Assembly (NCBI GenBank): GCA_030838445.1
Contig: JAUZFQ010000015.1
Span: forward strand, 11,001-75,000
From: Pyrinomonadaceae bacterium
Lineage (GTDB): Bacteria; Acidobacteriota; Blastocatellia; Pyrinomonadales; Pyrinomonadaceae
Length of the DNA stretch: 64,000 nt
Direction: 5' to 3'
Shown: positions 5,119 to 62,158 of the stretch, piece after piece
Layout: each line of letters opens with the position of its first letter
How positions within the stretch are numbered: the stretch's first letter is position 1
Translations under genes and position numbers: made by a program
Notes under the pieces: generated by a model
Databases searched by the model: none
Seen by the model: the letters and a program-made list of their open reading frames with translations, nothing else
Told to the model about the DNA's origin: nothing

Positions 5119-8100
5119 TCAAGGCGACTTCCCGGCGCGATCCCACGTCGCCCGCCCGCCGTGGAGGGTGAAGGCGATGCCGTTGATCGTGCGGTTCGCC
5201 AAACCGATCTGTGCCGCAGGGACTTCAAGCCTGACCCACTGGCCGACGGGCGGCAACGCGCCCATGTAACGGCGCGAGTCCGTGCCGTCCGTGCCCCAGG
5301 GAATGTAGTTCGCGCCCCAGTACGCGCGGTGATCCCATACCCCGTCATTCCATTGCAGCATTATCTCGTTCGGGATGTTCGCCGGGTCGAGGTAGATGTA
5401 GGCGATGAGCTTGTCGTTGGCGTTGATCGCCAGCGTGGTCGTCGCGTTGTAGAAGTAGTGCTGATGGATGCCGCCAAAGATGTTCGATTGGTGCGCGGCC
5501 GTGCCGGAGAACGGCGGCGGGTTGGTGCTCACCCAGTTCCAGCCCTCGAAGTCGCCGCCGCTGACCGCGCCCGCAGGTAGAGCATCTTCGACATACACCA
5601 CCTCGCCCGTCGTCGGCGGCGTGGGAGTTGGTGTCGGCGTCGGCGTGGGCGTCGGAGTTGGCGTGGGAGTGGGAGTTGGTGTCGGTGTTGGTGTTGGGGT
5701 CGGCGTCGGCGTCGGGGTGGGCGACCCCGACGAGGACTTACCGGTACGATCCCAGGTGGCGCGACCGCCGTAGAGTGTGAAGGCCATCCCGTTGAGCGTC
5801 TTGCCTTCGAGGCCGAGTTGCGCCGCGGGCACTTCAAGCCTGACCCACTGGCCTGCCGGTGGCAACGCGCCCATGTAGCGACGCGAAGCCGTGCCGTCCG
5901 TCCCCCACGGAATAATGTTCGCGCCCCAGTAGGCGCGATGCTCCCAGATGCCGTCGTTCCATTGCAGCATGATCTCCGACGGCACGTTCGCCGGGTCGAG
6001 ATAGACATAAGTCACCAGCCGCTCGCCGCTATTGACGGGGAAGGTGCTCGTCGCGTTGTAGAAGTAGTGTTGATGCGTGCCGCCGAAGATGTTCGACTGG
6101 TGTGCGGCCGTGCCGGAGAACGGCGGCGGGTTGGTGCTCACCCAGTTCCAGCCTTCCGCGTCACCGCCAAGAGCGCCGCCCGTCGGAACGGCGTCTTCAA
6201 ACCACACCACGTCGCCGCCGGGTGTGGGCGTCGGCGTGGGAGTGGGCGTAGGTGTCGGCGTCGCGCTCGGCGTCGGGGTGGGCGTCGGGGTTGGCGTGGG
6301 TGTTGGAGTTGGTGTCGGTGTCGGCGTCGGAGTTGGGGTCGGCGTCACTGACCCGTTTGATTTGCCCGCGCGATCCCAGGTGGCGCGACCGCCGTAGAGC
6401 GTGAAGGCCATGCCGTTAAGCGTCTTGCCTTCGAGGCCGATCTGACTGGCCGGGACTTCGAGCCTGACCCACTGACCGGCGGGCGGCAGTGCGCCCATGT
6501 AACGGCGGCTGGCTGTGCCATCCGTACCCCACGGAATAATGTTCGCGCCCCAGTAGGCGCGGTGCTCCCATACCCCGTCGTTCCACTGCAACATCATCTC
6601 GCCGGGAGTGTTCGCCGGGTCGAGATAGACGTAAGTGATTAACTTGTCACCGGCGTTGACCGCGAGTGTGCCGGTCGCGTTGTAGAAATAGTGCTGGTGC
6701 GTGCCGCCGAAGATGTTCGACTGGTGCGCGGAGAGGCCGGAGAACGGCGGCGGGTTCGTCCCCACCCAGTTCCAGCCCTCGCTATCTCCCCCCAGAATGC
6801 CGCCCGTCGGCACTGCATCCTCAATCCAGATCACATCGCCCAACGGCGTCGGGGTCGGGGTGGGTGTCGGCGTCGGAGGAGGCGGCGTCGGCGTCGGCGT
6901 AGCCGTAGGGGTAGGCGTAGGTGTCGGTGTTGGGGTTGGCGTGGGCGTCGGAGTGGGCGTCGGAGTGGGCGTAGCTGTAGGTGTGGGCGTTGGAGTTGGT
7001 GTTGGTGTCGGAGTTGGAGTAGGCGTCGGAGTTGGTGTCGGAGTAGGCGTCGGGGTCGGAGTGTTGTTGACGACGACGCTCACCGGACTTGAAGTCGTGG
7101 AAGCTCCGGCGGCGTCGGTGGCTTTGGCGTTGATGGTGTAGCTGCCCGCTGCGACGTTGTTCCAGGTGAACGTGTAGGGCGCAATCGTGTCCGTGCCGAG
7201 CAGCGCGCCGTTGGCGTAAAACTCTACCTTGCCGACCGCGCCCTCGGCGTCCGTGGCGTTGGCGGCGATGGAGATGCTGGCCGGGGCGGTGAAACTCGCA
7301 TTGTTGGCCGGACTCGTGAGACTGACTGACGGGGGCGTGTTGGCGGGCGGCTGCGCTCCCCCGGACGCCACTTTCACGGTCAGGAAATTGGTCGCTTGAT
7401 TGGCGACGTTCGATTGCCCGGTGAGGTACACGTTGCCCGCCGGGTCAATCGCCATATCGTAGACGAGATCGTTCGAGAACCCTGTGGGGCGATGCACCCA
7501 CTCGCGCGTGCCGTCGGGTTTGTACTTGATGGTCGTGAAGTCGTAGTCAGCCCCGGTCTGCGATTGGAGCGCGACGTAGGCATTACCGGCGGCGTCCAAG
7601 ACCAACTGGTTGTCGCCGTCCCACTTGCCCGGGCTGCCGTAGGTGCGTTCCCACAGCAGCGTGCCGCTGGGGTCATACTTGAGCGTGACGGCATCTGCGT
7701 TCTGAAAGTCGGCTTCGAGCGAGTCGCCGGTGGCGTAGATGTTGCCGCCGTCGTCAATGGCGATCTCCCTGATGATGTCGTTGTCGGGCGCGCTCCAGTT
7801 ACGACTCCACAGGAGCGAGCCGCCGCCGTTGTATTTCAACAACAGGAAGTCGCGCCGGTTGTCGCCCGGCCAGTTGAAACCGAAGACGCAGACGTTGCCC
7901 TGCTTGTCGAGCGCGAGGCCGTTGGCGGTCTCGATGTCGAACCCCGTTTCACTCTCCGGCGCGTCGAATTGCGCCGCCCACAGAGTGTTGCCCGCCGGGT
8001 CGTACTTGACGGTGTAGATGTCTTGCTCGCCGCCGCACGTGGCGGTCGTGACGCTGCCGGTGACGTAGATGTTGCCCGCCGCGTCCACCTCCAAATCTTC

Positions 8101-14602: not shown

Positions 14603-14608
14603 CTAATT

Positions 14609-14664
14609 TCTCACGCTTAACTTCTCACGCTTCATTTCTCACGCTTCATTTCTCACGCTTCATT
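14609..14664 (-). repeat. Four tandem 14-nt units (minus-strand AATGAAGCGTGAGA) filling the hisN-hisA spacer
   Basis: Plus-strand units tctcacgcttcatt at 14651-14664, 14637-14650 and 14623-14636, plus variant tctcacgcttaact at 14609-14622. The first unit contains the hisN stop codon. Confidence 0.95.
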
Positions 14665-15438
14665 TTTGACGTGGCCGAGCACGGTCTCGAAGAGGAGGCC
14701 GTTAGTGGAGATGGCATTGCCCCCGCGAATTGTGCGTCGGCCGCCCCAGTCTGTGAACGTCCCTCCGGCCTCTTCGAGGATGGGCAAGAGCGGCGCGCAG
14801 TCCCACACGTTCATCACCGGGTCGAGCATCACCTCCGCGCGCCCGGTGGCGACGAGGACGTGCCCGTAGCAATCGCCCCACGTGCGCCGCGCGCCCGCCG
14901 CCTGTTCCAAACGGCGCGCCGCCTCGCCGAAGCCGTAACGCTCGCACGTCCCGAAGTCAGTCGAGAGCAACAGGGCATCCACGAGCGTCGGCGTGGCGGA
15001 GACGCTCGCGCGCGTGTCGTTCCAGAAGCAGCCCGCGCCCCGCGCCGCGTAGACGATCTCGCCGAGCGCGGGCAAATTGACGACGCCCAGGCAAACCTCT
15101 TCCGCGATCTCCAAACCGATGAGCACGCCGTAGAGCGGCACGCCGTGGACGAACGAGTAAGTGCCGTCAATCGGATCAATGATCCACTGCCTGCCGGACG
15201 AACCAGCGCGCGTCTCTTCCTCTTCGCCGAGCACCGCGTCGTGCGGAAATTTTTCTTCGATGCGCGCGCGGATGAACCTTTCGGCTTCGCGATCCGCCTG
15301 CGTCACGAACGAGCCGTCGGCCTTGCGTTCGGGCGTGAAGGGTCGCCGGAAGTGGCGCAAGGTAATCTCGCCCGCCCCGCGCGCGAGTCCGACGGCGAAC
15401 TCCAACAACTCTTCCAATCCCGTTTCATCCTGTTTCAT
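14653..15438 (-). CDS. hisN: Inositol monophosphatase-family protein, probable histidinol-phosphate phosphatase HisN
   Basis: IMPase motifs WIIDPIDGT and WDCAPLLPILEEAGG. It is embedded in the his operon, where HisB is dehydratase-only. Its start overlaps the hisIE stop. Confidence 0.7.
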   Translation of the reverse strand: MKQDETGLEELLEFAVGLARGAGEITLRHFRRPFTPERKADGSFVTQADREAERFIRARIEEKFPHDAVLGEEEETRAGSSGRQWIIDPIDGTYSFVHGVPLYGVLIGLEIAEEVCLGVVNLPALGEIVYAARGAGCFWNDTRASVSATPTLVDALLLSTDFGTCERYGFGEAARRLEQAAGARRTWGDCYGHVLVATGRAEVMLDPVMNVWDCAPLLPILEEAGGTFTDWGGRRTIRGGNAISTNGLLFETVLGHVKNEA

Positions 15439-16136
15439 TTCGCGCCCCGCTTCCCCTCACGCACGGCCAGTTCCGACTCGATCTCTTCCAACCCGACGCC
15501 GCGCTCGACCAGCAGCACGAGCAGATGATAGAGCAAATCCGATACTTCGCCGGCGAGCGCGTGCGCGTCTTCGTTCTTCGCCGCGATGATCGTCTCGGCC
15601 GACTCTTCGCCCACTTTTTTCAAAATCTTATCCAACCCCTGCTCGAACAGATAGGTCGTGTACGCGCCCGCGGGGCGTTCCCGCCGCCTGCTCTCGATCA
15701 GCGCGTACAGCCCCGCGAGTGTCGCGCCGAGCGAACGCGGGCGTCTTGTCTTAACGTCGCCTTCGCTCTCGCCGAACTCATTCACACTTTCGATCTTGAG
15801 TTCATTCGCACTTTCGATCTCGTGTTGAAAACATGAACGCGCGCCCGTATGACACGCCGGGCCTGACGGCTCGACGAGCGCGACGAGCGCGTCGCGGTCG
15901 CAGTCAACCGCGACGCCGAGGACGCGTTGCGTGTGGCCGGAAGTTTCGCCCTTATGCCAGAGTGCGGCGCGCGAACGCGACCAGAACCACGTCTCCCCCG
16001 TGTCGAGCGTGCGCCGCAAACTCTCCGCGTTCGCGTAGGCGACGGTGAGCACCTCGCGCGTCGCCGCGTCCTGCACGACCACGGGGACGAGGCCGCGCTC
16101 GTCGTACTTCAAATCCTCCAACGCGTATTTCGTCAT
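15435..16136 (-). CDS. hisIE: Bifunctional phosphoribosyl-AMP cyclohydrolase / phosphoribosyl-ATP pyrophosphatase HisIE
   Basis: [23 protein letters not shown]...[17 protein letters not shown] (HisI) followed by [21 protein letters not shown]...[13 protein letters not shown] (HisE). The true start ATG 16136 overlaps the hisF stop (ATGA). The Arg-rich 113-aa extension in the ORF track is spurious. Confidence 0.9.
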
Positions 16137-29441: not shown

Positions 29442-29519
29442 AAGATCAGTTGAACTACATGAGAAGTAAGATCAGTTGAACTACGTGAGCAGTAAGATCA
29501 GTCGAACTATGTGAATAGT
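29442..29519. repeat. Three tandem 26-bp repeats upstream of the secreted Cys-rich protein gene
   Basis: aagatcagttgaactacatgagaagt (29442-29467), aagatcagttgaactacgtgagcagt (29468-29493), aagatcagtcgaactatgtgaatagt (29494-29519). Confidence 0.95.
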
Positions 29520-29618
29520 AATCTCATCCTCTCTTAAATGGCAAAACTAGGAAGACGTTTTACCGGCGTAACTGCCGGGAAGTTTCAACCCACTTCATCC
29601 CTCCTTGAGCCTCACGGA

Positions 29619-39842: not shown

Positions 39843-40889
39843 CTAATCACTTTTTGTCCGTAGTGTTTGGTGCGTGCAACGGGCTACGCCTTTGTCGGGG
39901 CCATTCGGGTACCACCAGCCGGTTGCGCCGCAATCAGGGCACTGTGAGGCGTCAATGGGCGGCTCGGAGGATGTTTCTGCGACGACCTGCTCTTCGAGTT
40001 GTTTCTTGTCGAGTTTCCATAATCTACGCCGGAGATGCTCGGTGAGAAACGCGGGCACGGATGAGACTGTGGTGCGGGCGGCCGCGATTTTGAGTTCTGC
40101 CGAGAGTAGTTCAAAGAGAGGCTCCCAAGCCTGATTGTTGGATTCTTTGCCCGTCAGTTCCCTTTCCGCCTCGCGGAGCGATTTGGCGAAAGCCTCATCA
40201 TCAAAAAATTTTTCTATAGTCTTAAAAGAAGTCTTAGGAGGGCTAGAAGTATCAGTGTTCTCAACAGATAGACCCCTGTCACCCCTGTCAGATTCTGACC
40301 CCTGTACCATGTGTAGATCTTGCACTGTCACACCCCTGTCACCCCTGTCACCCCTGTGCCCCTTCTCAATGCCCACCTCTTCCGGCAAATAAACGGTAAA
40401 AAGATTGCCGCCATGCTCCCCTCCCTTTTCTTCAACCGTAACCAGACCGGATAAAACGAGCCTCTGGAGATGCGCGCGGTAGGTGTGGCGGGTCATGCCG
40501 GCACCGCGCATCACTCTGTCTGTAGGAATACGTTCAGATCGTTTGGGGACGATAGCTCCACGCGTCTGTGAATAGAGATAATCGTAGAGCTGTTTACCTT
40601 TACCGGTAAAGAGTCCGGCCGGAATCGCGTCGCGCACGACGGAATTCGCCACGCGTGCGAAATCTCTTTTGGGTGCTGCGTCCCCTGTCACCCCTGTCAC
40701 AGGGGTGACAGGGGTGACAGATGTCACAGGGGTGACGTCTGTGACAGGGGTGACAGGGGTTGAAATCTCTTCGGGCTTGATTAGATCGTCGTGAGGCAAA
40801 CGCAACGCTGTCGGTACCATCAGGCCGAGCTTCTTTTTGGGCTGTGGGCTGCGTAAAGAGCTGGCAGGTTTGGGTTTAGTCTCTCCCAT
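39843..40889 (-). CDS. Putative replication-initiator-like winged-helix protein with C-terminal Cys cluster
   Basis: wHTH-like segment LYDYLYSQTRG...MTRHTYRAHLQRLVLSGLVTVEEKGGEHGGNLFTV, plus C-terminal CPDCGATGWW...ARCTH. It is the last gene of the xis-parA-rep operon and carries repeat arrays inside its coding sequence. Confidence 0.45.
   Translation of the reverse strand: MGETKPKPASSLRSPQPKKKLGLMVPTALRLPHDDLIKPEEISTPVTPVTDVTPVTSVTPVTPVTGVTGDAAPKRDFARVANSVVRDAIPAGLFTGKGKQLYDYLYSQTRGAIVPKRSERIPTDRVMRGAGMTRHTYRAHLQRLVLSGLVTVEEKGGEHGGNLFTVYLPEEVGIEKGHRGDRGDRGVTVQDLHMVQGSESDRGDRGLSVENTDTSSPPKTSFKTIEKFFDDEAFAKSLREAERELTGKESNNQAWEPLFELLSAELKIAAARTTVSSVPAFLTEHLRRRLWKLDKKQLEEQVVAETSSEPPIDASQCPDCGATGWWYPNGPDKGVARCTHQTLRTKSD
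40273..40357. repeat. Cluster of six CCCCTGT(C/A) iteron-like motifs (period 9 within sub-clusters)
   Basis: Motif copies at 40273, 40282, 40299, 40333, 40342 and 40351 (plus strand), all in the same orientation, inside the Rep-like ORF. Confidence 0.9.
40682..40759. repeat. 33-bp perfect palindrome plus a further run of the same 9-mer in inverted orientation
   Basis: CCCCTGTCACCCCTGT-c-ACAGGGGTGACAGGGG (40682-40714), followed by repeated (A)GGGGTGAC units up to 40759. On the coding strand this encodes VTPVT repeats. Confidence 0.9.
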
Positions 40890-50180: not shown

Positions 50181-50771
50181 ATGAACTCTCACGCGGATGA
50201 GCTGGTCAAAATCCTGCGGCTCGCCTACTCCGGCGAGTTGGCGGCGGCTTACGCATATCGCGGCCACTGGCGTTCGTTGAAGGACGTGGCGACGAGAGAG
50301 CGCATCCGCGAGATCGAGAGTGAGGAGTGGCATCACCGTCGGCTGGTGGGGCGGATGCTCGAACATTTGGGCGCGCGGCCGAACCGCGTGCGAGAGTTGC
50401 GCGCCGTCGTCGTCGGGCGCGCGCTCGGCGCGATGTGCCACGTCGCCGGGTGGCTGCTGCCGATGTACGGCGCGGGGAAACTTGAAAGCCGGAACGTCAA
50501 CGAGTACGAGACGGCGGCGCGGCACGCCTCGCGCTCAGGCCGCGCGGAGTTTGTAGACTGCCTGCTCCACATGGCGGAAGTGGAGTGGGAGCACGAAAAA
50601 TATTTTCGCTCGCTCGTGGCGACTCACAGGCTCGGCGCGCGCCTTCCGCTGTGGACGACGCCCGCGCCGAAAGAGGCGATCCGCGCGACCTACCACGTCG
50701 AGTTAGGCGCGATCCCCGAACGATTCAACCTCACCGACGACGAGTTGGCCTTCGAGTCCGACCGCACTTAA
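50181..50771 (+). CDS. Ferritin-like (rubrerythrin/COQ7-like di-iron) domain protein
   Basis: Two ExxH-type motifs in helical context (EIESEEWHH and AEVEWEHEKYF), plus the upstream YSGELAAAYAYRGH. Confidence 0.6.
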   Translation: MNSHADELVKILRLAYSGELAAAYAYRGHWRSLKDVATRERIREIESEEWHHRRLVGRMLEHLGARPNRVRELRAVVVGRALGAMCHVAGWLLPMYGAGKLESRNVNEYETAARHASRSGRAEFVDCLLHMAEVEWEHEKYFRSLVATHRLGARLPLWTTPAPKEAIRATYHVELGAIPERFNLTDDELAFESDRT

Positions 50772-50872
50772 CTTCGCGCCTGCATCCGACCGCGTTTAAC
50801 TTCGCCTTTGAGTCTAACCGCGTTTAACTTCGCTTGAGCATCCGACCGCGCCGCACAACGTCACGCGCTTGG

Positions 50873-58250: not shown

Positions 58251-59339
58251 TTACGCGCGTTTGATGTTGCGCGTCGCAGCGGTGGCGGCTCTGGCGTTCG
58301 TCTCGCCCTGTTTCGACGCGCCCGCATTGGCGTCGCTCGTCGCGGCCGTGGCGTTAGTCTTTTCGATGCGCGCGGAGATGCGTCGGTCGAGGTCTGTGAT
58401 CTGTTCGGGCGTGAGACGGTAGATGTTCGTCTGGTTGTGGTAGAGCTTCGCGCCCGTCACGATGTCGGCGACTTTGAAGCCGTGCCCCTCGGCCTTCGCG
58501 ATCAACTCCTGAATCGTCAAGGCCTGCGGCACGAGCGAGAGCGGCGAAGGCTTCTCTTCGAGCGTCTCCGGCACGCTCGGGGCGAGCGGCGTCTCCATCG
58601 GCAGTTCGTCGCCTGTCTCGCGCTTCATGTGGTTGATGAAATCGGAGAAAGTGATTGCGCCCGTCAACTCGAAGCCGACCTCGAAGGCCGGGCTGTTCGA
58701 CTTGACGATCTGGAAGACGCGCACGACTTCGCCGTCGCGCTCTTGCAGCGACACCTCGACCATGATGTCCACGAAGTATTCCAACCCGCTCGCCGTCATC
58801 GGCAACACGCGGCCGACTTCGTTGTCCTCTTTCGCTTCTTTCCCCTTCGCCGGAATCTGATCCACGATGACGACCGACTTGCCGCTCTCGATGCACAGGC
58901 GGCGCAGGACGCCCTGCAAGATCATCTGGTCGGCGGCGAGTTCTTCGGCCGAAGGCTGCGCCAGCGGATCGTCCGAGCGTTCGCGCACGGCCGCGACCAT
59001 CTCGCTGTGTTTAGCGCTGAAATAGGATGCCCACGAGTCGAGCGCGAAGCAGCCGTAGTTCTGCTCCTGCCCTTCGCCGGAGAGCGCCCAGTCAATGAAT
59101 TCGGGCAGTTCGTCTGGGTGTTCGATTTCGAGGCCGTCGAAGATCGTGCCGTTGCCTTTAAGGAGGCGCGACTTGCGCTCCACGTCGAAAATGCAGAGGC
59201 GACCGAGGCCCGCCTCGGCCATGCTGCGCACGAAGTGGCTCTTGCCGACGCCCGCTCCGCCACGCACCGCCATCACCAGACGCTGTTGACGCGGCCGTCG
59301 ACTCAGCGGATTAACTTTCGGTTTTCTTGTGTTGCTCAT
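58251..59339 (-). CDS. Orphan P-loop NTPase resembling phage AAA_24/Sak4-type RecA-like ATPases, with an extra C-terminal domain
   Basis: Walker A VRGGAGVGKSHF, then CIFDVERKS and CFALDSWASYF (Walker B-like). The start ATG 59339 has AAGGAG 9 nt upstream. The upstream 84 codons in the ORF track lack coding character. Confidence 0.6.
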   Translation of the reverse strand: MSNTRKPKVNPLSRRPRQQRLVMAVRGGAGVGKSHFVRSMAEAGLGRLCIFDVERKSRLLKGNGTIFDGLEIEHPDELPEFIDWALSGEGQEQNYGCFALDSWASYFSAKHSEMVAAVRERSDDPLAQPSAEELAADQMILQGVLRRLCIESGKSVVIVDQIPAKGKEAKEDNEVGRVLPMTASGLEYFVDIMVEVSLQERDGEVVRVFQIVKSNSPAFEVGFELTGAITFSDFINHMKRETGDELPMETPLAPSVPETLEEKPSPLSLVPQALTIQELIAKAEGHGFKVADIVTGAKLYHNQTNIYRLTPEQITDLDRRISARIEKTNATAATSDANAGASKQGETNARAATAATRNIKRA

Positions 59340-59680
59340 CACTACTTGCTCCTTCGGTGTTTCATTTTTTCGGTGACGGTTCTTTGCGTGTTCGCCCGCC
59401 AAAACTTTTACCGCGACGCGCTCGGGAGTGCCCATCGAAAACTTCAAGCAGCACTGGAGCGATAACCTCGAAAACGGCGGCACTGTAACACGTTTCGGGC
59501 GCGAGTGCAACAATATTTCATGGATGAAACAAAACAATTTGAGCGATGAAACGGACAGACCGGCGCGTTTGTCGGCCGTCAACTTTGACAAAGCGGGCGA
59601 GAAAAGTTTTTATAGTTGAGTTAAATTTATCCAACGACACGACACACGGCTAGTTTCATTCCGGCAGCAGAAGAGAGTTT

Positions 59681-61084: not shown

Positions 61085-61119
61085 AAAGTCGTCGCCGTTT
61101 CAGATTCGGCGGCGACTTT
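61085..61119. terminator. Hairpin between convergent CBS and Cas4-like genes
   Basis: AAAGTCGTCGCCG, 9-nt loop, CGGCGGCGACTTT (12/13 bp). Short T runs flank it on both strands. Confidence 0.4.
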
Positions 61120-61123
61120 GTGC

Positions 61124-61699
61124 TCAGTCCGCCAACGACTCGTCGCAAAGTTCCCGGTAGCTACAGGCGGCGCAGCGCGCCCGCTCGTCGTGGCTGCGAT
61201 GCACGTCCGACGCCACGCGCGCCTCGCGCATCTCGCCGAGCAGCGCGAGCAACGCCTCACGCAACTCGTCCGTGTAATCCACGCGCAACTCCCTGTCGCG
61301 GTAGCGAATCACCCCGAACGGCACGGACGCGCCCGTCGTCTCCTCGACGAGCAGGCAGTAGCAAGCGAGTTGCATCACGTGCGACTCGTAGGGCACGCCG
61401 TCCGCCGGGCACTTCGTTGACTTCGCCTCGACGGGCACGACGCCCTCGTCCGTCTCGACCAGATAATCCGGCCGCCCCACCAGCCCGTGCCGGTGCGACA
61501 GCAGAGGCTTCTCCTGCCGCTCGCCGCGCGCGTTCAACCTCACGGGTGCGATGCGGCCGACGGGCGCGCCCGTGTCGTTATAGATGACACGCCCCGCGGG
61601 CAGTCCCGCGCGCCGCGCCCCACGCTGCGCCGCCAGCCAAGCGACGGCGGCGACGGCGACGAGCAAGACGAAAATCAGCGACAGAAAATTTATCGCCAT
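61124..61699 (-). CDS. Cas4/RecB-like PD-(D/E)xK nuclease core with N-terminal TM helix (downstream part of a split gene)
   Basis: TM segment INFLSLIFVLLVAVAAVAWLAA; nuclease motif GRPDYLV...VVPVEAKSTK; QLACYCLL; C-terminal CX2CX5C (CAACSYRELC), as in Cas4 Fe-S nucleases. Confidence 0.65.
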   Translation of the reverse strand: MAINFLSLIFVLLVAVAAVAWLAAQRGARRAGLPAGRVIYNDTGAPVGRIAPVRLNARGERQEKPLLSHRHGLVGRPDYLVETDEGVVPVEAKSTKCPADGVPYESHVMQLACYCLLVEETTGASVPFGVIRYRDRELRVDYTDELREALLALLGEMREARVASDVHRSHDERARCAACSYRELCDESLAD

Positions 61700-61725
61700 A
61701 AATTTATCGCTATAAATTTATAGAC
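61684..61725. repeat. Three tandem AT-rich 14-nt units spanning the junction of the two Cas4-like ORFs
   Basis: gaaaatttatcgcc (61684-61697), ataaatttatcgct (61698-61711), ataaatttatagac (61712-61725). The array contains the upstream TAA (61718-61720) and the downstream ATG (61697-61699). Confidence 0.95.
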
Positions 61726-61969
61726 ATTGTGACGCCAGAAGTATGAGACCCGTGATGAGCGCGAGCAGGAAGGCCACGCGCGCGAGCAGGCGCAACTTTC
61801 GCGCCCGCGCCACCTCGCGGCCGTGCGCCAGATGCCACGTCACGCCCTCTGCGCGTCGCCCTTGGCCGGACGCAGGCTCGTGCCCGTCTGCGCGCAGACG
61901 CCACGCCCGCGCGCAATAGACGTACTCGGCCACCTCCGACGCGCGCAGATATTTGCCCCGCCCGCTCAC
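61718..61969 (-). CDS. Cas4-like N-terminal segment (first Fe-S Cys motif) followed by a TM helix (upstream part of a split gene)
   Basis: LRASEVAEYVYCARAWRL...GVTWHLAHG resembles the Cas4/DUF83 N-terminus, followed by hydrophobic LLARVAFLLALITGLILLA. It is in the same frame as 61124-61699. Confidence 0.55.
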   Translation of the reverse strand: MSGRGKYLRASEVAEYVYCARAWRLRADGHEPASGQGRRAEGVTWHLAHGREVARARKLRLLARVAFLLALITGLILLASQCL

Positions 61970-62063
61970 CGTCTCACCTCTGAAATATCAACAAGCTGGA
62001 AAACTTCGCCCATCATAAACCAGCGAAGGAGAAGTCGCCGCGCCGAATTGACGAGGGCGACTT

Positions 62064-62158
62064 TTACAGTATCAACGGGGCGGCAAATTGACAGTAGCGA
62101 CGGGAGCGGCTAAGTGACAGTAAATGCTGTTGACAATCGTCGCCGGTTGGATTAATGT
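62064..62158 (+). promoter_or_regulatory. Divergent control region with repeated T(G/T)ACAGTA motifs and a promoter-like element
   Basis: TACAGTA at 62064, TGACAGTA at 62088 and 62115, TGACAAT at 62131. TTGACA (62130-62135), 17-nt spacer, TAATGT (62153-62158). Confidence 0.45.

Follow-up and report, generated by a model that had tools for sequence, protein, structure and literature searches.

Two adjacent open reading frames (ORFs) in a 64-kb stretch of DNA from a Pyrinomonadaceae bacterium most probably form a two-gene operon for the two halves of one membrane-anchored nuclease of the Cas4 family (RecB-type, PD-(D/E)xK, with an Fe–S cluster). The whole 64-kb stretch is referred to as the window, and all coordinates are those of the window; both ORFs lie on its minus strand. 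The upstream one was named ORF A and encodes an N-terminal piece of the Cas4 domain followed by a predicted transmembrane (TM) helix, while that encoded downstream, ORF B, begins with a second TM helix and continues with the catalytic core and the C-terminal Cys triad (Table 1). The two ORFs share one reading frame, their starts are 270 nt apart, and they are separated by a TAA stop codon plus six sense codons (IYSDKF). A first-pass annotation, made from the sequence alone, had described this arrangement as a Cas4-like gene split by one in-frame TAA inside an AT-rich triple repeat. The coordinates agree with it as regards the shared frame and the codons in between, and the junction is indeed AT-rich within GC-rich surroundings (GC content of 0.25–0.30 at 61680–61739, versus 0.65–0.85 on either side). 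The split itself, however, turned out to be a conserved division into two genes that mostly overlap out of frame (ATGGCGATAA, ATGA or TGATG), the TAA being in frame in the window by way of two extra repeat units. The notion of a natural two-subunit nuclease with a TM hairpin, one of the explanations that the annotation had offered, fits the evidence and is well supported.

Loci of relatives were collected by a scan of one genome per GTDB species, which yielded 35 loci, and a total of 36 distinct loci containing both parts were compared. They came from Pyrinomonadaceae, other Blastocatellia, Chloroflexota (Anaerolineae, Ardenticatenaceae, Promineifilaceae, Ca. Leptofilum and Caldilineales) and one archaeon of the Diapherotrites (DPANN). 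A and B were separate ORFs in all 36, and a single ORF in none. In every locus, A was located upstream of B, A ended in a hydrophobic helix followed by a stop codon, and B began with a hydrophobic helix; this order thus holds in two bacterial phyla and one archaeon. The junctions were of several types: a 10-nt overlap reading ATGGCGATAA in most Pyrinomonadaceae, a 4-nt overlap (ATGA), a 1-nt overlap (TGATG), or gaps of 2–10 nt. The frames of A and B differed by 2 in most of the relatives, by 1 in some and by 0 in others; several Chloroflexota also showed an in-frame stop, with B's own ATG 6 nt later. In syntenic contigs, a 10-nt overlap links an 83-aa gene to the start of a 191-aa gene. The joined sequence, used as a query, retrieved 639 proteins, the best 120 of which were ∼188–195 aa long, except for P0091 (231 aa, over-called) and two shorter ones; given these lengths, they correspond to B alone. 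Most of these 120 belonged to Pyrinomonadaceae metagenome-assembled genomes (MAGs), with 60–87% identity. A search with A found 76 clusters, all of 70–139 aa and none fused, some of them labeled ‘Cas4 (RecB family)’ by the Joint Genome Institute (JGI). The ratios of nonsynonymous to synonymous substitutions (dN/dS; Nei–Gojobori method, ten relatives) ranged from 0.13 to 0.48 for A and from 0.10 to 0.36 for B. A and B are therefore real genes under purifying selection, and the split is ancient and conserved rather than recent.

A few loci departed from the usual arrangement. In Anaerolineae bacterium HyVt-591 (DRQW01000101.1, 5271–5878), a DUF433 plus DUF5615/PIN_10 gene pair, which looks like a toxin–antitoxin module, is inserted between A and B, indicating that the A/B pair tolerates physical separation. 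In a Caldilineaceae bacterium (OZ242006.1, 5905–6729), B is spread over two frames and no A-type ORF was detectable upstream; either this copy is decaying or the long-read assembly contains an indel error. In some gene calls, B is prolonged upstream in a frame other than that of A and covers it, which generates spurious proteins of 214–258 aa that hide A (locus L005, 4001–4696; proteins P0091, P0197 and P0231). The lengths of P0197 and P0231 had suggested that they might be fusions, but they were rejected as out-of-frame extensions of this kind.

ORF B scored above the curated cut-offs of the Pfam model Cas_Cas4 (PF01930; 42 bits versus 22.7) and of TIGR00372 (cas4; 73.1 bits versus 65). The Cas4 assignment, for which the first-pass annotation had named profile searches as the test that could overturn it, was in this way upheld. 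However, B matched only profile positions 53–178 and therefore lacks the N-terminal quarter of the domain; positions 1–52 include one Fe–S ligand and the motif-I ligand. These are the residues that A can supply. When an A+B profile was aligned to the solved type I-C Cas4 (8d3l_I), A residues 4–59, including the Cys and the His, corresponded to residues 5–59 of the chain, and the core to residues 102–201. Residue conservation was examined in alignments either of 34 A/B pairs or of pairs combined with natural fusions, invariance being assessed across 22–34 aligned pairs and fusions. The conserved features of A were ASE..Y.(Y/F)C19.(R)..W and G42...H46, followed by the TM helix, with C19, W23, G42 and H46 invariant or nearly so. 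Those of B were the TM helix, GLPxGxxxYxDxG, GxPD78Y, PvE91xK93, Q110LxxY114C and C176xxC179xxxxxC185. His46 of A corresponds to the residue of SSO0001 that PMC13621843 quotes as His62. The RecB-type catalytic motifs are complete only across both chains, with His46 on A and D78, E91-x-K93 and Q110...Y114 on B. Likewise, only A and B together have the four cysteines of the predicted Fe–S cluster, C19 coming from A and C176, C179 and C185 from B; the proposal that the cluster would need cysteines from both pieces is therefore in line with the motifs. Rather than a single soluble polypeptide of ∼160–220 aa containing the whole Cas4 domain, all 36 loci had two ORFs, each with a TM helix. By its motifs, profile scores and predicted fold, the feature is nonetheless a member of the Cas4 family.

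The archaeal locus of the comparison, L038 (Candidatus Diapherotrites archaeon, PCWY01000049.1, 1106–1857), contains a split pair with a 1-nt overlap in which a Ser replaces the Cys of A, while B ends before the CX2CX5C motif; the triad is absent in all three frames. To judge from its sequence, this is apparently a cluster-free version of the same architecture. Such a joint loss of the cysteines in A and in B is what would be expected if the four formed one cluster.

Hydropathy analysis agreed with the earlier prediction of one TM helix in each ORF: the Kyte–Doolittle 19-residue maxima were 2.53 in A (residues 61–79) and 2.80 in B (residues 5–23). Each helix is bordered by an Arg/Lys-rich stretch where it meets the soluble domain, which, following the positive-inside rule, suggests that both soluble domains are cytoplasmic. 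AlphaFold2 modeled the joined A+B chain of the window with a mean predicted local distance difference test (pLDDT) score of 92.7 and a predicted template modeling (pTM) score of 0.88; it was built from an unpaired alignment of B-only, A-only and natural fused sequences. In the model, a helix spanning residues 35–79 bears the motif-I His and runs straight into the first TM segment, a turn at residues 80–82 coincides with the A/B junction, and a second helix (residues 83–113) forms the other TM segment and leads to the beta core. The top Foldseek matches of this model in the PDB were all Cas4 proteins, namely 7mi5_A, 8d3l_I (template modeling score of 0.64, normalised to the target), 4ic1 and 4r5q, followed by ACE1, MGME1, RecE and AddAB. 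When A was modeled alone, two helices were obtained with a pTM of 0.37 and lower confidence in the N-terminal part.

The architecture is not peculiar to this genome, as its unfamiliarity to the first-pass annotation might have suggested. An exhaustive HMMER search, with B as the query, yielded 1407 cluster representatives at E ≤ 1e-3, of which 641 remained at E ≤ 1e-10. Among the best 149 of these 50%-identity representatives, which were classified, ∼99 were of the B type (an N-terminal hydrophobic helix before the core; median length 175 aa), 16–18 were single proteins comprising the N-terminal motif, 2 to ∼10 hydrophobic segments and the core, and one was an ordinary soluble Cas4; the remainder were fragments. 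Those single-chain forms that have names are from archaea, with ‘CRISPR-associated protein Cas4’ or ‘Dna2/Cas4 domain-containing protein’ as their annotation; examples are WP_052353351.1 of Methermicoccus shengliensis and proteins from Methanosarcinales, Euryarchaeota and Thermoplasmatota MAGs. These archaeal fusions are colinear with A+B and have their 2 to ∼10 TM segments at the same place; a Thermoplasmatota single-chain locus had housekeeping neighbors only. Aligning homologues, a check suggested by the first-pass annotation, thus showed two ORFs with TM helices in bacterial and DPANN relatives and a single ORF with TM segments in the archaeal fusions. The bacterial two-gene form would be the product of a fission of the single-chain form or, conversely, the archaeal single chain would be a fusion.

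The in-frame stop can be traced to a short tandem repeat. Tandem Repeats Finder detected a 14-nt unit present 2.6 times at 61686–61721 (score 65) and, together with the comparison with relatives, this defines three tandem units at 61686–61727. The three AT-rich 14-nt units reported earlier are therefore real, but their span had been placed 2 nt away, at 61684–61725. In relatives with a single copy the junction reads ...cgATGGCGATAAATTTTCTG..., the ATG of B and the TAA of A being included in the same 10 nt, which in most Pyrinomonadaceae form an out-of-frame overlap. The nearest relative, found in a Pyrinomonadaceae MAG (locus L006, with a B that is 97% identical), has two perfect ATGGCGATAAATTT units and a gap of 4 nt between A and B. 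Thus, the unit is present three times in the window, twice in L006 and once at every other Pyrinomonadaceae locus. Contigs from three other soil metagenomes (∼94% identical) lacked 14 nt at 61711 and represent the two-copy form. With one copy, the frames of A and B differ by 2, with two copies by 1, and in the window by 0. The two extra units add 28 nt, which converts the 10-nt overlap into an 18-nt spacer and shifts the relative frame from 2 to 0; that A and B are in the same frame is therefore accidental. An independent Logan contig, from a run holding 98% of the sampled words, was identical to the window over 61400–62000. The stretch containing the repeat is real and not an assembly artefact. 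This identity, plus the two-copy contigs found elsewhere, shows the repeat to be genuine and its copy number to vary among relatives.

The ancestral junction would have had a single unit, with the ATG of B overlapping the stop codon of A as ATGGCGATAA, and tandem duplication of ATGGCGATAAATTT in this lineage would have moved the stop of A and the start of B 18 nt apart. Both ORFs would have survived the expansion intact because every copy can supply the stop codon and the last one supplies the start. Copies 1 and 2 have diverged by two and one substitutions, respectively. The expansion also creates a five-codon mini-ORF that starts at the ATG of copy 1 (the ancestral position of the B start relative to the stop of A) and ends 10 nt before the ATG of B; judging from its position, it is a possible re-initiation relay. 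The in-frame TAA and the triple repeat are probably a neutral, local curiosity, but could modulate the translation of B.

Other short repeats were observed in the window. A 26-nt tandem repeat (2.2 copies) is present at 62066–62122, in the intergenic region between ORF A and a divergent MerR-like gene. An alignment of 14 Pyrinomonadaceae loci showed this repeat to be an insertion of ∼49 nt common only to the window and L006, which brings two more ACTGTCA/ACTGTAA half-sites beside a conserved palindrome (CAACAG-N5-ACTGTC, 62116–62132). A conserved TGGTTTATGATGGGCG block (TATGAT) lies upstream of ORF A, with a -10-like site at 62012–62017. Tandem repeats were also found at 14604–14675, 15778–15825, 29442–29521, 40677–40765, 50745–50850 and 5606–7068, the kinds observed being 14 nt ×4, 24 nt ×2, 26 nt ×3 and 28 nt ×3, along with 9-nt TGTCACAGG/GGTGACAG palindromic units and GC-rich periodic repeats of 6/12/18 nt. 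The lineage seems prone to short tandem duplications, which favors a mutational, not a regulatory, origin for the 14-nt triple repeat.

As regards translation, a Shine–Dalgarno-like sequence precedes the GTG of ORF A, and relatives have AGAGGAG or GGGAGG at this position, with TTG or GTG starts. The ATG of ORF B is not preceded by any such sequence. The stop/start overlap ATGGCGATAA of relatives, an arrangement classically linked with translational coupling, would couple the translation of A and B, a proposal that fits an upstream gene with a Shine–Dalgarno-like sequence and a GTG or TTG start, followed by one with an ATG and no Shine–Dalgarno. A GC-rich, terminator-like hairpin at 61091–61116 is likely to be the end of the two-gene operon. 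Another weak terminator-like hairpin, at 61698–61676, was dismissed as it is not conserved in relatives.

In the two-chain nuclease proposed here, the Cas4 domain would be cut, relative to the single-chain form, at the outer turn of a TM helical hairpin. A would have its N-terminus in the cytoplasm and its TM helix at the C-terminus, and would contribute the first cluster Cys and the motif-I His. B would start outside, cross the membrane through its own TM helix and provide, in the cytoplasm, the Asp, the Glu-x-Lys, the Q...Y and the CX2CX5C motif. The two TM helices would pair in the membrane and the Fe–S cluster would staple A to B, so that the active site would lie right at the cytoplasmic surface of the membrane; neither subunit is expected to be active alone.

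Other explanations for the in-frame TAA were considered. A recent pseudogene, in which a single-chain TM-hairpin Cas4 was broken by a nonsense mutation or by the insertion of the repeat, had been put forward in the first-pass annotation; it would agree with two ORFs that lie in frame only a TAA and six codons apart, and with the existence of single-chain relatives in archaea. This is close to untenable, since the 36 bacterial and DPANN relatives are all split, mostly out of frame, since dN/dS is 0.1–0.5 for both ORFs even in the comparison with the 97%-identical relative, and since each ORF has its own start and stop codons in the register observed in relatives. Read-through or recoding of the TAA, also proposed at that stage, would generate a functional 281-aa single chain in this organism. 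The common frame and the short in-frame linker would allow it, and the joined chain folds well in silico. It is nevertheless very unlikely: the in-frame state is due solely to the 28-nt expansion, the frames differ by 2 in relatives with one copy and by 1 in those with two, most relatives having overlapping ORFs, the in-frame stops of Chloroflexota are each followed by an ATG of B's own 6 nt later, and no recoding signal is conserved. Low-level accidental read-through may occur, but is not needed to explain the data. An assembly or sequencing artefact is extremely unlikely. Short tandem repeats in low-complexity AT-rich DNA are indeed error-prone, and the word depth of the source run was a modest 7.5; however, the independent contig identical to the window came from the same run, the two-copy form was found in relatives from other samples (that of L006 in a separate MAG), and the three copies differ in sequence, something an assembler does not invent.

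It might also be argued that the copy number of the repeat acts as a regulatory switch, slippage tuning the translation of B or uncoupling it from that of A through the mini-ORF relay or an AT-rich internal promoter. Copy numbers of 1, 2 or 3 do occur among close relatives and soil metagenomes, the expansion abolishes the stop/start overlap and creates the mini-ORF, and the same lineage has duplicated a 26-nt unit in the upstream regulatory region. Yet copies 1 and 2 have diverged, unlike those of a rapidly slipping perfect repeat, and the other short repeats of the window suggest a general mutational habit instead of a dedicated switch. Further, the internal promoter suggested earlier found no support, as a sigma-70-type scan detected no promoter-like site and single-copy relatives leave no intergenic space for one. 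No within-sample variation was seen, copy number being assessed on contigs only. Such a switch is thus unlikely. Finally, A and B might be functionally independent, with B a truncated nuclease that works by itself and A a small membrane protein, unrelated to it, that is encoded upstream by chance. B alone passes the Cas4 thresholds, A alone does not match any model, and in one Anaerolineae locus the DUF433/DUF5615 pair separates the two. However, A bears the exact Cas4 N-terminal motif with the invariant Cys and His, it precedes B in 36 of 36 loci, the four cysteines were lost together in L038, the archaeal fusions are colinear with A+B, and B lacks the profile segment that holds one Fe–S ligand and the motif-I ligand. 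Independence is therefore decidedly unlikely.

Several points weigh against the proposal that A and B are the halves of one nuclease. The assembly of A with B, Fe–S binding, DNA cutting, the substrate and the role are all deduced from sequence and models, and a joined-chain model built with fusions in its alignment indicates compatibility, not assembly. ORF A alone gave no match to Pfam, NCBIfam or PADLOC families. ORF clustering over the 36 loci revealed no neighbor conserved across phyla, synteny being restricted to individual lineages, so the genomic context offers no clue to function. After the expansion, ORF B, which has no Shine–Dalgarno and starts 18 nt from the stop of A, could be poorly expressed in this strain, and the copy number behind this argument was itself read from contigs. 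Even so, the two-gene, two-chain nuclease is the explanation that best accommodates the conservation of the split.

Table 1. Features of the ORF A/ORF B locus (coordinates of the 64-kb window)
Feature	Coordinates	Strand	Description
ORF A	61718..61969	-	GTG start, 83 aa; N-terminal Cas4 piece (ASEVAEYVYC19ARAW ... G42..W-H46..H49-G), then C-terminal TM helix
ORF B	61124..61699	-	ATG start, 191 aa; N-terminal TM helix, conserved GLPxGxxxYxDxG, PD-(D/E)xK core, C-terminal Cas4 Cys triad
Shine–Dalgarno-like GAGGTGAG	61973..61980	-	3–4 nt upstream of the GTG of ORF A
Cys19 codon of A	61913..61915	-	Predicted first Fe–S ligand; invariant in 35/36 loci, Ser only in L038
His46 codon of A	61832..61834	-	Predicted motif-I metal ligand; invariant; aligns with HK of 8d3l_I
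TM helix of A	61733..61789	-	Predicted; residues 61–79, LLARVAFLLALITGLILLA; Arg/Lys-rich cytoplasmic flank before the helix
Three tandem 14-nt units	61686..61727	-	Tandem Repeats Finder and comparison with relatives
Repeat copy 1	61727-61714	-	ATGTCTATAAATTT
Repeat copy 2	61713-61700	-	ATAGCGATAAATTT
Repeat copy 3	61699-61686	-	ATGGCGATAAATTT
Mini-ORF	61710..61727	-	Five codons (ATG TCT ATA AAT TTA TAG; MSINL), read directly from the sequence
TAA stop of ORF A	61718..61720	-	In repeat copy 1; register matches the TAA/TGA of A in single-copy relatives
ATG start of ORF B	61697..61699	-	In repeat copy 3; no Shine–Dalgarno before the start
TM helix of B	61631..61687	-	Predicted; residues 5–23, FLSLIFVLLVAVAAVAWLA; positive flank QRGARRAG after the helix
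Motifs II and III of B	61421..61468	-	G-R-P-D78-Y-L-V ... P-V-E91-A-K93-S; D, E and K invariant
CX2CX5C triad of B	61145..61174	-	C176-A-A-C179-S-Y-R-E-L-C185; invariant; would complete the Fe–S cluster with Cys19 of A
GC-rich, terminator-like hairpin	61091..61116		Between the convergent ends of ORF B and the cystathionine-beta-synthase-like gene

In Pyrinomonadaceae, ClpA, ClpS, a small ORF and a MerR-like gene precede, in this order, the divergently oriented A–B pair, which is followed by a convergent cystathionine-beta-synthase-like gene (PALP+CBS). The neighbors in Chloroflexota are quite different; housekeeping synteny is conserved within each of the two groups. No repeat family with CRISPR-like spacing was found in the 64 kb, so the earlier statement that the window contains no CRISPR array stands. 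No cas genes were found in the related loci examined, while the other ORFs of the window were not all scanned for cas. The surroundings, with MerR-like, cystathionine-beta-synthase-like, ClpS and ClpA genes, are thus not those of a CRISPR-associated Cas4 adaptation module. Being located outside CRISPR-cas and mobile-element contexts, the feature is what Hudaiberdiev et al. (2017) call a solo-Cas4. A scan of viral contigs with the A+B profile detected no relatives. PADLOC assigned to B only Cas4 models and a weak DruK match, and no known defense system is therefore implicated. Elsewhere in the window, a 446-aa ORF with a P-loop (GGAGVGKS; 58251–59591, minus strand), whose start codon was probably over-called, is syntenic across Pyrinomonadaceae loci and matched no Pfam or PADLOC model.

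Our best guess is that the enzyme performs end-processing or degradation of DNA at the membrane, either of incoming foreign DNA or in membrane-proximal repair, as a housekeeping-like solo-Cas4 and not in CRISPR adaptation. A more specific version, which is possible but doubtful, is that of an obligate heterodimeric, membrane-embedded Cas4, with cluster and active site shared by two chains, whose substrate would be DNA on the cytoplasmic side of the membrane; it might, for instance, trim or destroy DNA that enters by phage injection, conjugation or transformation. If this were true, solo-Cas4 would gain a defined, CRISPR-independent role. The membrane tether of this clade, which comprises hundreds of clusters at 50% identity, limits the places in which the enzyme can act. 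The proposal predicts that the proteins fractionate with membranes, that A and B depend on each other, and that the Fe–S cluster bridges the subunits. The clade would also be an instance, found in nature, of a compact enzyme domain divided at the bend of a TM hairpin, each chain having part of the catalytic and cofactor ligands, which is useful for the study of gene fission and fusion and for split-protein design. The series of one, two and three copies, in turn, shows that an overlapping stop/start can be duplicated without harm to either gene. As for annotation, NCBI labels A as ‘hypothetical protein’ and B as ‘CRISPR-associated protein Cas4’; these labels, plus the out-of-frame calls for B, make single-ORF Cas4 counts and ‘four-cysteine’ generalisations slightly wrong for these phyla.

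Cas4 is encoded by ∼90% of archaeal and ∼20% of bacterial genomes, many of the genes lying outside CRISPR loci, and all Cas4 proteins are described as containing four cysteines (PMC5704561). The same work, by Hudaiberdiev et al. (2017), reported that the solo-Cas4 of ‘many Chloroflexi’ belongs to a monophyletic clade; neither ‘transmembrane’ nor ‘split’ occurs in its text. A paper on the characterised solo-Cas4 of M. mazei does not mention a membrane or TM segment either (PMC12501428). A Cas4-like clade reported in 2026 for JCVI-syn3.0 (mSphere; PMC13621843) has a different architecture, with DUF2779 fused to a DEDD nuclease. No description of a transmembrane, membrane-anchored, two-gene or split Cas4 was found in the literature, the coverage of which was incomplete, so this is absence of evidence only. 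The A/B pair is thus apparently an undescribed, split and membrane-anchored variant of solo-Cas4. Like the solo-Cas4 proteins known so far (COG1468/PF01930/TIGR00372), it has the PD-(D/E)xK motifs and a 1+3 Cys module, is located outside cas loci among housekeeping genes, and is inherited with local synteny under purifying selection. Unlike them, a TM hairpin interrupts the domain, two genes are used in bacteria, and no single polypeptide contains the four cysteines. The archaeal single-chain TM Cas4 proteins, also solo, follow the same order (N-terminal motif with Cys and His, TM segments, GxPxG..Y.D, core and CX2CX5C), but consist of one ORF with 2 to ∼10 TM segments and have ∼27–43% identity to A+B. 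CRISPR-associated Cas4 proteins (8d3l; the Cas4–Cas1 of G. sulfurreducens, 7mi4/7mi5; SSO0001, 4ic1; Pcal_0546, 4r5q) gave the best sequence and predicted-fold matches and have the same catalytic and cluster residues. The A/B nuclease differs from them in consisting of two polypeptides and in the lack of cas1, cas2 and an array at the locus; its membrane anchor would probably be incompatible with the solved Cas4–Cas1–Cas2 assembly. In the ‘iron-staple’ of the AddB/RecB family, one Cys located N-terminal and three located C-terminal to the nuclease core bind an Fe–S cluster that pins the ends of the domain together. The A+B model matched a structure of this comparison, 4cei, weakly in Foldseek. 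Unlike in AddB/RecB, the staple of the A/B nuclease would join two different polypeptides, with no helicase fusion and with a membrane anchor.

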